Sequence record: DRR378314_2339
DNA: 48,375 nt
Direction: 5' to 3' (one strand)
The notes under the pieces are model-generated. The model made no database searches. It saw only the letters and a program-made list of their open reading frames with translations, and had not been told where the DNA came from. Shown here one piece after another: positions 16,464-35,262 of the stretch (within the stretch, counting starts at the first letter, position 1; every line of letters begins with the position of its first letter). Both the position numbers and the translations under genes were made by a program.

Positions 16464-16587
16464 TTGCTTGACTTTTTAAGGTAGCGTATAGTACCTTAAA
16501 TTAAGGAATTTAATTGAAAAAAACTTAGTTGGACGCTAAACGGATTGTGGAATTGCTCCTATGGAATGTTCGGAGAAAATGATGAAT

Positions 16588-16621
16588 AAAAAACCGCCCT
16601 GGGCAATTACTCCAAGACGGT
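16588..16621 (-). terminator. Intrinsic terminator of the lipoprotein gene ending at 16685
   Basis: Minus-strand ACCGTCTTGG/CCAGGGCGGT 10-bp stem whose two G-U pairs work only on the minus strand, followed by a U-tract. Confidence 0.75.
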
Positions 16622-16684
16622 CTTTAACTAAATAACCAACCAAAAACTTCTTTATATAGTTACCGTAAAACCTTACGGTAATAA

Positions 16685-17611
16685 TTATATCTTTCTTTTT
16701 CTGACCACCTTCATGGTCCCATATTCGGATTTTGTCCTCTTCTTGTCCAATTGGGATATATCTGATTTCAAATAGGTAATAAATCCCTTTCCCTTAAACT
16801 TGTAAACTGTTCCACTAGAGGAATGATATAGCTCTATTGTACTATCATTAATAACGTACAACTCAAAGTAATCATTGCCCATAAAGTCATAATCCAGTGT
16901 TAAAGTTTTGAGCGTTTCATCGTTATAAACGTCGAATAATGAATACTCCCCACTATAATCCCATAAAACATCGTCCAAATGCATCCCACTGGGGTCTACC
17001 GAGGAATTAAACATACTTCTGTTTCCGTCAATATAGAACTGTAAATAATTTTCCGAATCGAAATCGTTCACTAATCCTTCCTTACTCGTAGCTACCTTTT
17101 CCCAAACATCATATTCCTGCAATAGATATTCAATATTGTCATAAAATACCATGTCATAATCAAAGTTATTTCTTTGATATCCTTCTAAAAAATATGAGGT
17201 TCGGCTATGGGAATCATATAATTCAATGGTATTGTTATCCACAACGAATACCTCCAAGCTCCAAAATCCGTCCACATCATGGTTAATTTGCAGCCTTTCA
17301 CTGGCCGTATTGAAATAACCAACATCGAGTCCAAAGCCGTTTCCTGTTTTCCCAATACCCACTATATTATTATTGGCAAAAACGGTTTCACCCACAAATG
17401 AGATGGTGAATGCACGTTGTAAAAAAGGAACCTCCCCATTACCGGAAGTAGCATTTATATCTACATACCAAAGCTCGTGGGATTTTAATAGGGCGTTGAC
17501 ATTGAGAAAGGGTTCATCAATATATTCGTCTTCAATAATAACTTCGGTATAACAACCTGTAGCCAAAACAGCCAGGGTTAAAGTTGTAAAGAGTAGTTTT
17601 GTAGTTCTCAT
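16685..17611 (-). CDS. Hypothetical lipoprotein with two internal beta-rich repeats
   Basis: Start moved to 17611 (MRTTKLL...LATGC lipobox); repeats VVDNNTIELYDSHSRTSYFLEG and VINDSTIELYHSSSGTVYKFKG. Confidence 0.75.
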   Translation of the reverse strand: MRTTKLLFTTLTLAVLATGCYTEVIIEDEYIDEPFLNVNALLKSHELWYVDINATSGNGEVPFLQRAFTISFVGETVFANNNIVGIGKTGNGFGLDVGYFNTASERLQINHDVDGFWSLEVFVVDNNTIELYDSHSRTSYFLEGYQRNNFDYDMVFYDNIEYLLQEYDVWEKVATSKEGLVNDFDSENYLQFYIDGNRSMFNSSVDPSGMHLDDVLWDYSGEYSLFDVYNDETLKTLTLDYDFMGNDYFELYVINDSTIELYHSSSGTVYKFKGKGFITYLKSDISQLDKKRTKSEYGTMKVVRKRKI

Positions 17612-17644
17612 TTTATATAGTTTGATGTTACCTATACCAGTAAA

Positions 17645-17660
17645 ACAATCATTATGCCAA
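17645..17660 (-). promoter_or_regulatory. sigma54-type (-24/-12) promoter TTGGCATAATGATTGT
   Basis: Matches TGGCACG-N4-TTGC spacing exactly, with GT at -12; about 34 nt upstream of ATG 17611. Confidence 0.6.
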
Positions 17661-17938
17661 CAATGCAAACTATTGTTAATCAACAAATTATAAACATCAA
17701 ACACTAAAAAATATTTACAGGAACAAAAACTTGGGTTTCCAATTTAACACCAAAACTTATACCGATGGTATAAAATTCTTGTTTTGAATCTCCAAAAAAC
17801 AGTCCTACATTGCCATAGATTTTAATGAGCCACGTACGCTTCCATATTAATACCGGAAAACTGATGGTCCATTGATTTTTTTAATGAGGAGATAACTTGG
17901 TTATTAGGTCTTGGCATACAACAAGAAATATTAAATAA

Positions 17939-32312: not shown

Positions 32313-33866
32313 ATGTCAAGAATTGCGCAAGAATTTGGAATCCAAGAAGCCCTGAAAAAATTAGGTGTCGAAGCTATAAATAATGGAACCTCAACAGGTT
32401 CGGATAATTTTTCTTCCGGAGAGGAGTTAAGCTCATACTCTCCAGTGGATGGTGTTCTAATTGCCAAAGTAAGAACCACCTCCAAGCAGGACTACGAAAA
32501 AGTAATGGATGCGGCCACCAATGCATTTAAAATTTGGAGAACAAAACCCGCACCCCAAAGGGGGGAAATAGTGCGACAGTTTGGAGATAAACTTCGTGAA
32601 CTTAAGGAACCTTTGGGAAAATTGGTTTCCTATGAAATGGGAAAATCATATCAAGAAGGCTTGGGAGAGGTACAGGAAATGATTGATATCTGCGATTTCG
32701 CCGTTGGTCTATCCAGACAATTGCACGGACTTACCATGCACTCGGAAAGACCTGGACATAGAATGTACGAGCAATATCATCCTCTAGGGGTGGTCGGCAT
32801 AATCTCGGCGTTCAATTTCCCAGTGGCGGTATGGGCCTGGAATACAGCCTTGGCATGGATAGCCGGAGATGTATGTATATGGAAACCCAGTGAGAAAACG
32901 CTCTTATGCGGTGTGGCATGTCAAAACATAGCCGCAGCAGTATTTAAAGAAAATAGCCTTCCCGAAGGTATTTCCTGTTTGATCAATGGCGACTATAAGG
33001 TAGGCGAATTTATGACCCATGACAAAAGGGTGCCTCTAATTTCTGCCACAGGGTCTATACGCATGGGAAAAATAGTAGCCCAGGCAGTGGCCGCCCGATT
33101 GGGAAAATCACTTCTTGAACTTGGAGGAAACAATGCCATTATCGTAACCCCCGACGCGGACATAAAAATGACCGTTATCGGAGCTGTTTTTGGGGCCGTT
33201 GGCACGGCAGGCCAACGCTGTACCTCCACACGAAGATTAATCATACACGACTCTATTTATGACAAGGTAAAAGATGCAATAGTTACTGCCTACAAACAAT
33301 TGCGAATAGGCAATCCATTGGATCAAAAGAACCACGTAGGTCCCTTGATAGACACCGATGCCGTAAAAATGTACCAAAAGGCACTTAAAAAAGTGGTGGA
33401 AGAAGGAGGCAAGCTAATTGTTGAAGGAGGGGTGCTGCAAGGGGAAGGATTTGAAAGCGGATGCTATGTAAAACCAGCAATTGCCGAAGCAAACAACAAT
33501 TTTGAGATCGTGCAACACGAGACCTTTGCCCCAGTGCTTTACCTATTAAAGTATTCAGGGGATGTTGAAAATGCCATTGCCATACAGAACGGAGTGGTCC
33601 AAGGACTATCTTCGGCAATAATGACAAATAATCTAAGGGAGGCGGAACGCTTTTTATCAGCTCAAGGTAGCGATTGCGGTATAGCGAATGTCAACATTGG
33701 AACTTCAGGAGCCGAAATAGGAGGAGCTTTTGGAGGGGAAAAAGAAACTGGTGGAGGCCGTGAGTCTGGCTCGGATGCCTGGAAAATCTATATGAGAAGA
33801 CAGACCAACACCATTAACTACACTACCGAATTACCTTTAGCCCAAGGGATAAAGTTTGATCTTTAG
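32313..33866 (+). CDS. Aldehyde dehydrogenase family 7 (piperideine-6-carboxylate / alpha-aminoadipate semialdehyde dehydrogenase type)
   Basis: EVQEMIDICDFAVGLSRQL, AFNFP, LELGGNN, GQRCT, GGGRESGSD, LPLAQGIKF; -7 element TAAATTTG at 32271-32278. Confidence 0.92.
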   Translation: MSRIAQEFGIQEALKKLGVEAINNGTSTGSDNFSSGEELSSYSPVDGVLIAKVRTTSKQDYEKVMDAATNAFKIWRTKPAPQRGEIVRQFGDKLRELKEPLGKLVSYEMGKSYQEGLGEVQEMIDICDFAVGLSRQLHGLTMHSERPGHRMYEQYHPLGVVGIISAFNFPVAVWAWNTALAWIAGDVCIWKPSEKTLLCGVACQNIAAAVFKENSLPEGISCLINGDYKVGEFMTHDKRVPLISATGSIRMGKIVAQAVAARLGKSLLELGGNNAIIVTPDADIKMTVIGAVFGAVGTAGQRCTSTRRLIIHDSIYDKVKDAIVTAYKQLRIGNPLDQKNHVGPLIDTDAVKMYQKALKKVVEEGGKLIVEGGVLQGEGFESGCYVKPAIAEANNNFEIVQHETFAPVLYLLKYSGDVENAIAIQNGVVQGLSSAIMTNNLREAERFLSAQGSDCGIANVNIGTSGAEIGGAFGGEKETGGGRESGSDAWKIYMRRQTNTINYTTELPLAQGIKFDL

Positions 33867-33879
33867 AATTCAACCTATG

Positions 33880-33926
33880 AAAAAACCCGCTATGTACTGG
33901 TTTGTATCCAGTACATAGCGGGTTTT
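33880..33926. terminator. Strong bidirectional terminator hairpin
   Basis: 19-bp perfect stem AAAACCCGCTATGTACTGG (33882-33900) / CCAGTACATAGCGGGTTTT (33908-33926). Confidence 0.88.
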
Positions 33927-34160
33927 AAACTAACCAACCAAATTACATCCTGAAGAATAGCTCTATACTCCAAGACAAAACGTTTATAATTGATCGTTGG
34001 CTAAAATATAAACCCGTAGCCACTTGAAAATTTCCCCTCCCCCCGAATAGGTCCATTAGAAATAGCTGCGGGTTTAACCAAACTAACTCAAATAATTATG
34101 GTGAAAAAGACCTATTTCAATGCCGGAACTTAGTCGGGAGAAATAAGGTCTTTATAATTC
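33880..34160 (-). ncRNA. Candidate structured non-coding RNA (unnamed; ends approximate)
   Basis: Three hairpins in an ORF-free spacer, two adjacent to related UUGGUU/AGUU motifs, ending in a hairpin with a U6 tail on the minus strand. Confidence 0.4.
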
Positions 34161-34494
34161 TAATATTTGCGCTAAAGTCTACATTTCATTCCATGATTAA
34201 AAGCAAAACTATATGGATGGTAATAAAATGTGTATAATTGGTACATTTTGCAACTGCTGCCCTAAACTTTCGTACCGACTTTCCAGACTAAAGTAGTTTA
34301 ATCATAGGGCGGAAACATTTTTTTACAACCGGCCCTATACAACATTATCTTTCTAAATTTTGCCAGAAATTGAGTAAACTTCCCTTAGGTGAATTATTTT
34401 GCTAACTATTTGATACGGAATATTTAATAACATTTTTTTAACATTTAAGGGAATTTTTTAATACATTTAGGCAAAACCCTAACAGCTATTCGAA

Positions 34495-34692
34495 ATGTCC
34501 AAAAAAACAACCAATTTATTGGGTATTGTTATTGCCATTGTTGCTGGAACCTATTTTAACCTTATGTTGTGCAATACATGCATAACCAAAACAGAGGATA
34601 CTCCCTCGGTTGAAAATACAGAGGATATCACTAAAAATAGTATCCTGGCTGATAAAAAGAATGAGCCTCAGAACCTTGAACAAAATAACTAA
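34495..34692 (+). CDS. Small single-TM membrane protein
   Basis: 65 aa; N-terminal TM then CNTC and a polar tail; -7-like TACATTTA upstream; ends 18 nt before the next gene. Confidence 0.6.
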   Translation: MSKKTTNLLGIVIAIVAGTYFNLMLCNTCITKTEDTPSVENTEDITKNSILADKKNEPQNLEQNN

Positions 34693-34710
34693 CCCAAAAC
34701 AATAAAGCAT

Positions 34711-35262
34711 ATGGAAAACCTTAGTATTTGGTGCTGGTTTATACCCGCCGTGGTAGGCATAGTCTGCGCACTATTTGGCTATTTAATTGGAAAAGGCAAG
34801 AATTCCCAAATAGACCACACTTCAGAATTAAATTTACTAAAGGACAAAAACGCAAAACTGGAAACCGATCTGGCGGCATGCAACAAACAACTATCCCAAA
34901 AAGTGGAGCTTGTTGTTCCTGCCAAACCCGTAGCCCCAATAGCCGCCGCAGAAGCCCTACTTCCATTTAATGCACAGGCAGCAAAAGCTGCCTTAGGAAA
35001 AACTGTAAAGCGGGACGATCTAAAGATCGTGGAAGGAATTGGACCTAAAATTCAACAACTTTTCAATTCTTTTGATATTAAAACATGGAAGGATCTGTCC
35101 GAAACTGCCGTCGCCAAATGTCAGGAGATACTGGACAGTGGAGGTGCACGTTATAAAATTCACGATCCTGCCTCATGGCCTATGCAGGCAAAAATGGCCT
35201 ACGAAGGCAAATGGAAAGAATTGCACAAATGGCAGGAAGAACACAAAAGAGGAAAACTATAA
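34711..35262 (+). CDS. Membrane-anchored protein with coiled coil and C-terminal helix-hairpin-helix (DUF4332-like) domain
   Basis: N-terminal TM; DDLKIVEGIGPKI...WPMQAKMA. Confidence 0.8.
   Translation: MENLSIWCWFIPAVVGIVCALFGYLIGKGKNSQIDHTSELNLLKDKNAKLETDLAACNKQLSQKVELVVPAKPVAPIAAAEALLPFNAQAAKAALGKTVKRDDLKIVEGIGPKIQQLFNSFDIKTWKDLSETAVAKCQEILDSGGARYKIHDPASWPMQAKMAYEGKWKELHKWQEEHKRGKL

Follow-up and report, generated by a model that had tools for sequence, protein, structure and literature searches.

Does the 628-bp spacer (33867-34494) between the aldehyde dehydrogenase (ALDH) gene ALDH7 and the small gene orf65 encode an RNA of its own, and what might such an RNA do? The spacer lies in a 48,375-nt stretch of DNA from sequence record DRR378314_2339, referred to as a whole as the window. 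Marine Flavobacteriaceae are the main degraders of algal polysaccharides and, to our knowledge, almost nothing is known about regulation at the RNA level in these bacteria; the small RNAs (sRNAs) of Bacteroidota that we know of, GibS, FopS and Rfp18, come from gut Bacteroides or from Flavobacterium. An original prediction, made from the letters of the window, had proposed a structured minus-strand RNA in this spacer, running from a hairpin through a U/G-rich motif to a hairpin or terminator and belonging to a paralogous sRNA family.

We find that the minus strand of the spacer very probably encodes a conserved structured RNA, previously undescribed, which is well supported by comparison of genomes and weakly by RNA-derived contigs. 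The RNA starts with a 5' hairpin, continues with a single-stranded G/U-rich tract and ends in a terminator-type hairpin. The tract and terminator recur as a module at the ends of many mRNAs in the nearest genome compared (G001; 100% complete, spacer 99% identical), from which our genome-wide counts are taken unless stated otherwise. Above all, the module closes susD genes of polysaccharide utilisation loci (PULs), hinting at a common RNA-level control of polysaccharide use.

Architecture and conservation of the spacer RNA

All hairpins and motifs that had been described in the spacer, as well as a repeated 12-mer, are indeed present in place. Read along the minus strand, the RNA opens with the conserved hairpin P2' (34106-34153), whose stem has an outer part of 9-10 bp and an inner part of 3 bp, whose loop has invariant letters, and which is followed by a U5 tract (34105-34101). 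Next comes motif 1, the U/G-rich 17-mer UUUGAGUUAGUUUGGUU (34076-34092, minus strand; family-wide form GUUUGAGUUAGUUAAGUUGGUU), a tract composed of GUU-type repeats that in most of 117 flavobacterial loci follows the conserved hairpin and precedes the terminator. In other genera a simple terminator follows, and the RNA is about 130 nt long. The genus of the window has a longer form of about 250-290 nt, in which a long G-rich hairpin has replaced the first terminator, and a second G/U tract and a second terminator have been added.

The long stem that stands in place of the simple terminator, P1' (34010-34075, minus strand), pairs 34075-34065 with 34020-34010 over 11 bp and has a U-rich run after it. 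Its 44-nt interior (34021-34064) is nearly invariant in the genus, being G-rich on the minus strand (GGGGGGAGGGG) and C-rich on the plus strand (CCCCTCCCCCCGAATAGG). A linker (33943-34009, minus strand), which has a small variable hairpin and is kept only in the main clade of the genus, leads to motif 2, the U/G-rich 16-mer UUUGGUUGGUUAGUUU (33927-33942, minus strand). Motif 2 is kept in the same clade (L019-L032) and lies directly 5' of terminator T2 (33880-33926, minus strand), which consists of a 19-bp stem, a 7-nt loop and a U6 tail and is retained in the genus with compensatory changes. On the minus strand T2 has the G+C-rich stem-loop and U tract of a Rho-independent terminator, as does P2' together with its U5 tract; read on the plus strand, T2 serves as the terminator of ALDH, and its tail there is weaker (U4). 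Folding energies are -97.9 kcal/mol for the 285-nt minus strand (z = -6.9; none of 200 shuffles folds as well) and -77.5 kcal/mol for the plus strand (z = -6.0). By eye, an alternative fold is also conceivable, in which the minus-strand GGGGAAAU of the P1' interior could form 8 pairs with AUUUCUCC in the 5' arm of the conserved hairpin.

Conservation in related genomes had been proposed as a check on the element, and the spacer is kept in 22 of 25 genomes of the genus, the most conserved block being 34002-34250. Among 301 genomes sampled from the family, 83 match the spacer at E <= 0.01, mostly weakly, and the convincing matches cover the motif and the 34106-34153 hairpin without the long stem. 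A search of a one-genome-per-species collection with the hairpin-core pattern gave at least 120 contigs among the matches listed (~170 estimated); 117 of these 120 are flavobacterial, and the other three are chance matches outside the family. The first 80 listed titles include Arenibacter, Maribacter, Flagellimonas/Muricauda, Croceitalea, Cellulophaga, Eudoraea, Spongiimicrobium, Croceivirga, Aureicoccus and other Flavobacteriaceae, and contigs titled Arenibacter have the architecture exactly as in the window. Throughout the family the order on the window's plus strand is the same: the ALDH stop codon, a variable G+C-rich hairpin with A and T runs, the A/C-rich motif AACCAACTTAACTAACTCAAAC, the conserved hairpin, a short conserved box and two TGTATAAnTGGTA direct repeats ~21 nt apart. 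The conserved hairpin is single-copy in most genomes; the whole spacer matches once in G001, and the hairpin core once per listed locus.

The genes on either side are also largely conserved: in a set of 28 family loci the element adjoins ALDH in 23 and a homologue of orf183, the gene after orf65, in 25. Five divergent genomes of the genus (G003, G004, G008, G011 and G019) lack orf65 and orf183 and retain the element between ALDH and a desaturase gene, which disfavours the element as a 5' untranslated region (UTR) of orf65. A plus-strand riboswitch or orf65 5' UTR was accordingly rejected, both because the element is present without the two genes in these five genomes and because the wobble bias described below points to the minus strand. 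In three loci (L061, L071 and L075) a unit comprising the conserved hairpin, the direct repeats and a box ATTGATTAATAGC occurs twice in tandem, and in two others (L073 and L074) the hairpin-repeat unit lies downstream of the orf183 homologue and lacks the A/C-rich motif. These arrangements indicate that the hairpin-plus-repeat unit is separable from the motif-plus-terminator unit.

Strand, transcription and genomic context

To assign the element to a strand, we used pairs that are allowed as G-U on one strand and are mismatched as C-A on the other. The 10 outer pairs of the conserved hairpin (P2), taken over 99 distinct sequences, comprise 879 Watson-Crick cells, 74 C-A or A-C cells, which are G-U on the minus strand, 7 G-T cells and 30 others. 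Pair counting over 102 sequences gave 96.7% paired cells on the minus strand versus 91.4% on the plus strand (95.6% versus 88.6% in the outer helix), with 70 one-sided G-U cells on the minus strand versus 5 on the plus strand; the wobble changes are spread over five stem positions and many genera. Both sides have changed in 44 compensatory cells, in 6 of 12 pairs, although the genomes compared are kin and such cell counts overstate the number of independent events. None of 500 shuffles reached the observed values, and controls with the helix slid along the sequence were at most 58% paired.

The hairpins adjoining the motif behave similarly. Over 69 distinct hairpins there are 73 minus-type and 30 plus-type wobbles, and stability favours the minus strand in 47, the plus strand in 20 and neither in 2, with a mean difference of 2.4 kcal/mol; this scoring left out 26 loci in which a regular expression found no motif and 20 in which no ungapped hairpin passed the score, the latter including every Arenibacter-type long stem. 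In L025, L029 and L032 the ALDH-proximal terminator T2 has three C-A mismatches on the plus strand that are G-U pairs on the minus strand. The covariation that had been suggested as a check across Flavobacteriaceae is therefore present, and the wobble bias favours the minus strand; the structured minus-strand RNA first proposed is borne out by a layout kept across genera, by covariation and G-U bias, and by short contigs from RNA runs.

Several observations weigh against a minus-strand RNA gene, and they concern strand, expression and promoter alike. Within the genus, one P1 pair is T-G in 15 of 21 sequences, in keeping with the earlier remark that a middle-stem pair is G-U only on the plus strand, and the fourth pair of the P2 inner stem is G-T in 17 of 21; both favour the plus strand. 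A putative further helix, 'P3', likewise fits the plus strand in the genus alignment, with 35 G-U cells and 0 mismatches, but a pair of direct DNA repeats is a better reading of it than an RNA helix. The genus alignment is thus mixed on strand, and it is the family-wide data that decide for the minus strand.

Expression was seen as assembled contigs of public runs, from which strand and true ends are not readable. Contigs of four runs, each wholly inside the spacer, span 171-265 nt, and none is joined to the ALDH coding sequence. The contig of X4, a metatranscriptome, covers 33905-34126, with 33680-33904 and 34127-34484 uncovered, although contigs cannot prove absence; that of X5, from the same study, covers 33952-34122 at a depth of 27, with no cover of the ALDH coding sequence. 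The other two are RNA by guess only: the X3 contig (33918-34110), from a run flagged as probably DNA, and the X1 contig (33878-34142), which starts 2 nt past the end of the U6 tract. All contigs of the window species stop inside P2 (34110-34142), possibly through low cover near the 5' end, loop processing or assembly effects. X5 also has an 860-nt contig from a related organism that spans the conserved hairpin entirely and reaches 40 nt past it. We take the four spacer contigs as a weak hint of a discrete transcript.

No clear promoter had been found at the outset, and this still holds: scans for sigma-54 and canonical sigma-A promoters gave no box at a constant distance. TAnnTTTG is the promoter consensus in a flavobacterial transcriptome paper (PMC9723704, accessible part), but there is no canonical TAnnTTTG at a fixed place across genera; it occurs in 9 of 114 loci, 25-75 nt upstream of P2'. 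A conserved box GACTTTAG (34172-34179, minus strand; family form GAAATTTG or GAnTTTAG) lies ~20-30 nt upstream of P2' and, as a partial match to TAnnTTTG, is a candidate -7 promoter element. A perfect TAnnTTTG box, TAGTTTTG (34204-34211, minus strand), is an alternative promoter candidate that is found in the genus only, with invariant TA..TT columns. A sigma-54-like TGGTAC..TGCA was rejected, its spacing being wrong and its sequence not conserved.

Upstream of the RNA are two direct repeats, TATGGATGGTA and TATAATTGGTA (34210-34246), 21 nt apart and with extra copies in some genera. They sit between the sRNA gene and the divergent orf65-orf183 and are a likely protein-binding DNA site. The candidate sRNA gene, on the minus strand, runs away from orf65-orf183 and towards ALDH7 (32313-33866, plus strand; Pfam Aldedh, E = 4e-125). 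On the plus strand, orf65 (34495-34692) encodes a small membrane protein and orf183 (34711-35262) a protein with an N-terminal membrane helix and a coiled stretch, neither belonging to a Pfam family; a convergent fatty-acid desaturase gene comes after them. To a reader's judgement the C-terminal part of orf183 looks helix-hairpin-helix (HhH)-like, and orf65 and orf183, with homologues in L019-L077, form a gene pair that adjoins the element and is kept in many genera.

As had been claimed, no minus-strand coding sequence runs into the terminator. The longest open reading frame (ORF) of the spacer has 37 codons, and none is conserved, the minus strand included; a small protein encoded in the spacer was rejected, as the 37-aa ORF loses its ATG in divergent members of the genus. 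A plus-strand ORF of 27 codons (34213-34296) begins within the first direct repeat and is unlikely to be coding because its ATG is replaced by ATA in 9 of 21 genus sequences.

Recurrence of the G/U tract and terminator

The 12-mer of motif 2 was originally seen to recur exactly near 16633-16644, again on the same side of a minus-strand terminator, and we confirm this. The second copy, UUUUUGGUUGGUUAUUUAGUU with its terminator (16587-16646, minus strand), lies in the 3' UTR of an ORF of 339 aa without a Pfam family (16685-17704). Its 11/12-mer (16633-16643/4) is 41 nt after the stop codon of this minus-strand ORF and ~7 nt before the terminator (16625-16587), which has G-U pairs that are absent when the plus strand is read.

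The exact motif fails as the marker of a recurring family that it had been proposed to be. Within the window the 11-mer has 4 matches at <= 1 mismatch versus 1.98 expected, a number that 14 of 100 shuffles reach, and the exact 11-mer of motif 2 shows no enrichment in G001, with 16 sites compared with 14 of the reversed word, so it was rejected as a family marker. Our own detector finds a terminator after 4 of these 16 sites (a fifth, L008, was seen by eye) versus 1 of 14 and 1 of 10 sites of control words of the same composition; it also flags the G001 counterparts L013 and L012 as terminators. The related 11-mer TTGAGTTAGTT, of the other motif, is enriched (in G001, 17 sites versus 1 of the reversed word; in G020, a second member of the genus, 13 versus 2), and roughly half of its copies stand before a terminator. 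Allowing <= 1 mismatch, GTTTGAGTTAGTT has 22 sites in G001, 11 of them followed by a terminator, and the placing is fixed, the motif lying 5-15 nt upstream of the hairpin.

Nine of the 22 GTTTGAGTTAGTT-type sites lie 11-43 nt past the stop codon of a same-strand ORF, and these ORFs encode six SusD-family proteins, two sulfatases and one short-chain dehydrogenase (SDR). G001 has 37 SusD matches; for 30 of them we read the 3' flank and sought the motif within 70 nt of the stop codon. The strict motif follows 9 of 30 susD genes versus 1 of 38 other genes (Fisher p = 0.004), and a loose form follows 12 of 30 versus 3 of 38 (Fisher p = 0.003); on the opposite strand of the susD flanks the strict form occurs 0 times and the loose form twice. 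We conclude that the module of G/U tract and terminator also closes many mRNAs of G001, above all the susD genes of PULs. Since its copies lie mostly in mRNA 3' UTRs, the recurring unit is a 3'-end module common to mRNAs and the spacer RNA rather than a set of sRNA paralogues. Of the paralogous sRNA family first suggested, the recurring pattern of motif and terminator thus stands, while the family itself does not: the copies are mostly mRNA 3' UTRs, especially of susD, and the conserved hairpin is single-copy in most genomes. At L234, L239/L240, L257 and L278 of G001, a GAGTTAGT unit is repeated two or three times in tandem before the 3' UTR terminator; these tandem tracts also hold stop codons in more than one frame.

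The susC genes offer candidate partners for the G/U tracts. Their 5' UTRs in G001 are G-poor and rich in TAACTAAC and TTAACCAA-like tracts 10-35 nt before the start codon. Against the two seeds, 29 susC start regions give mean predicted duplexes of -10.4 and -11.2 kcal/mol, compared with -8.3 to -9.6 kcal/mol for start regions of other genes (41 of G001 and 28 of the window; p = 0.0003 to 0.013 versus susC) and -8.2 and -8.5 kcal/mol for shuffled susC regions. In addition, TAACCAACCAA, the exact complement of motif 2, occurs 1-9 nt before four start codons (L003, L006, L009 and L016; 4 of 16 genome-wide sites), those of a sodium:solute symporter (SSF), a nucleoside/MFS symporter, a GntP permease and a protein without a Pfam family. 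As to protein partners, G001 gave no RRM_1 match in a search in which the control genome of B. thetaiotaomicron does give matches, and no Hfq gene was found in it; a partner of the RbpB or Hfq type was therefore rejected.

A separate hairpin lies ~50-90 nt upstream of the start in 9 of 30 susC genes of G001 (L284, L285, L287, L289, L292, L294, L297, L302 and L303), comprising an A-run, TCGGAAAATGC, a 5-6-nt loop and CATTTCCCGA; its single mismatch is a G-U pair on the strand opposite susC. This hairpin may be related to the noncoding RNAs (ncRNAs) that the accessible part of PMC13472631 places upstream of susCD.

Interpretation and comparison with known systems

The reading that we favour as a whole, and hold to be somewhat probable, is that the spacer carries an independent minus-strand sRNA gene whose G/U seeds damp transporter mRNAs. 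Transporter mRNAs would be recognised through their start regions and their G-poor, AAC-rich 5' UTRs, to which the G/U tracts would bind as seeds; the candidate targets are susC-type outer-membrane transporters and inner-membrane sugar or nucleoside permeases. By analogy with FopS and GibS in Bacteroides, pairing would lower translation of the target, here with neither Hfq nor an RRM protein as partner. A stabilising role, or the binding of a factor, may fall to the conserved 5' hairpin, and the upstream direct DNA repeats could be the site of a regulator that times its synthesis.

The specificity of pairing is a further point against this reading, as susC start regions pair no less well with reversed seeds (-10.7 and -10.3 kcal/mol), so that the specificity is mostly compositional, G/U versus A/C. 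The lack of enrichment of the 13-mer at <= 2 mismatches also counts against it, as does the uneven spread of TTGAGTTAGTT, which over 81 family genomes occurs 402 times versus 350 for the control, being above it in 38, below it in 38 and equal in 5. Thirteen genomes with at least 9 copies have 169 versus 40 in total; as this group is defined by the feature itself, it shows just that enrichment is confined to some lineages. The low specificity of pairing fits a different role, possible but appreciably less probable, in which the G/U tract and terminator do not serve as a pairing seed but form a 3'-end module that a protein, or the machinery of termination or decay, would recognise. The tract would then govern how the 3' ends of susD and other mRNAs form or how stable these mRNAs are, and the spacer RNA, with its two copies, would be a decoy or competitor for the same factor or would merely use the same ending. 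The sense-strand position of the motif between the stop codon and terminator of many unrelated genes, and its fixed placing 5-15 nt upstream of the hairpin, both speak for such a module. So does the failure of susC 5' UTRs to pair preferentially with the susD 3' UTR of their own operon, a scheme that we rejected (cognate -11.6 versus non-cognate -12.1 kcal/mol; permutation p = 0.77). On the other hand, there is no candidate protein, as G001 lacks RRM_1 and Hfq genes, the motif is enriched in just part of the family, and 18 of 30 susD genes are without it, though several of these run straight into a downstream gene without a terminator.

We consider it unlikely that the hairpins are simply the ALDH7 terminator and read-through structures on the plus strand, with the A/C-rich tracts as a leader, the P2 palindrome and direct repeats as operator sites of an orf65-orf183 promoter and the minus-strand RNA functionless. 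The P1 pair (15 T-G), the fourth P2 inner pair (17 G-T) and 'P3' (35 G-U, 0 mismatches) do fit the plus strand better, the linkage with ALDH and orf65/orf183 is strict, and direct repeats 21 nt apart resemble a protein site. But the P2 outer stem has 70-74 minus-type versus 5-7 plus-type wobbles and compensatory changes that keep pairing rather than sequence, the terminators favour the minus strand by 47 to 20, the element stays in the five genomes without orf65/orf183 and lies downstream of the orf183 homologue in L073 and L074, and the RNA contigs are not joined to ALDH. Still less credible, to the point of being very improbable, is that the motifs are low-complexity G/T-rich words that fall near ordinary terminators by chance. 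The lack of enrichment of the 11-mer in the window or G001 (16 versus 14) would agree with chance, as would that of the 13-mer at <= 2 mismatches in G001 (153 versus 210). Chance accounts poorly, however, for the counts of TTGAGTTAGTT in G001 (17 versus 1) and G020 (13 versus 2), for terminators after 11 of 22 and 4 of 16 motif sites versus 1 of 14 and 1 of 10 control sites, for a motif commoner after susD than after control genes (Fisher p about 0.003) and for its retention at the orthologous place across genera.

If the spacer carries an sRNA gene, as we favour, a larger network can be imagined, though we regard it as doubtful: a chaperone-independent RNA network for polysaccharide choice in marine Flavobacteriaceae, made of susD and sulfatase 3' fragments and a dedicated sRNA with common GUU-repeat seeds. 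In it, susD and sulfatase mRNAs would give off stable 3' fragments bearing the seed that precedes their terminators, and the AAC-rich 5' UTRs of further susC mRNAs and of sugar-permease mRNAs would be bound both by these fragments and by the separately regulated spacer sRNA, with its one or two copies of the seed. Competing uptake systems would then be damped whenever a PUL is strongly expressed or a signal induces the RNA of the ALDH spacer. What the spacer adds is an sRNA, structured and apparently expressed, that is conserved widely, shows clear covariation and has no Rfam model. The G/U-rich 3' module that it shares with a third of susD genes makes post-transcriptional prioritisation of PULs without Hfq or RRM proteins a testable idea. 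Were the motif a terminator-context signal only, it would still refine the annotation of terminators and 3' UTRs in this clade.

Among described RNAs we found no counterpart. None of 4227 Rfam families matched the window at the gathering score or any of 18 motif loci, the presence of the FopS model in release 15 not being established, and a search of 33700-34700 at E up to 10 gave nothing relevant; the Rfam check proposed at the outset thus gives no match to any described family, Flavo-1 included. The literature, covered in part, gave no description of the spacer RNA or of the motif behind susD. The accessible part of PMC9723704 describes Rfp sRNAs and nothing resembling the spacer element.

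The original prediction had likened the element to the FopS sRNAs, whose covariance model is said to be deposited in Rfam (PMC11697453). As far as the accessible part of that paper describes them, FopS RNAs are 65-70 nt long with the seed at the very 5' end, occur as 12-15 stand-alone copies per genome, have canonical sigma-A promoters, are bound by the RRM protein RbpB and are restricted to Bacteroidaceae; they pair adjoining the susC start codon and repress translation (PMC11697453). Compared with this partial description, the spacer RNA is single-copy and syntenic instead of one of 12-15 stand-alone paralogues, carries its seeds internally behind a 48-nt conserved hairpin in an RNA of ~130 nt (other genera) to 250-290 nt (the genus), and is found in a genome without an RRM_1 or Hfq gene, whereas FopS binds RbpB. 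By these features the spacer RNA is not a member of FopS. The two are alike in general logic and in their link to PULs: FopS pairs at the susC start, and tracts of the spacer type stand at the ends of susD mRNAs, their composition being complementary to that of susC 5' UTRs. The analogy thus breaks down in copy number, architecture and protein partner, and homology is not shown; its PUL-regulation part nevertheless gains an unexpected hook from the susD association.

A second comparison is with an abundant ncRNA of unexplained role in Flagellimonas and other Bacteroidota, which lies beside hth genes, upstream of susCD, at dCas12f-sigmaE loci (PMC13472631, accessible part). Compared by description, it is, like the spacer RNA, a conserved ncRNA of this bacterial group, and it is abundant and tied to susCD regulation; it differs in adjoining an hth gene and overlapping a guide-RNA target. 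The neighbours of the spacer RNA are ALDH7 and two small membrane or HhH-like proteins without a Pfam family.

The hairpins at the ALDH stop codon, flanked by an A-run and, opposite it, a U-run, also resemble bidirectional intrinsic terminators and may stop both ALDH and the sRNA; ordinary terminators differ in having neither a conserved flanking 20-nt motif nor a wobble bias toward the non-coding side. Finally, enterobacterial sRNAs derived from 3' UTRs, such as CpxQ and SroC, carry their seed just upstream of the mRNA's own terminator. The spacer RNA differs from this type in that no coding sequence lies upstream of it. The copies in susD, sulfatase and other 3' UTRs have a like layout, the likeness being one of layout alone, and a stable 3' fragment of these mRNAs could similarly act in trans.

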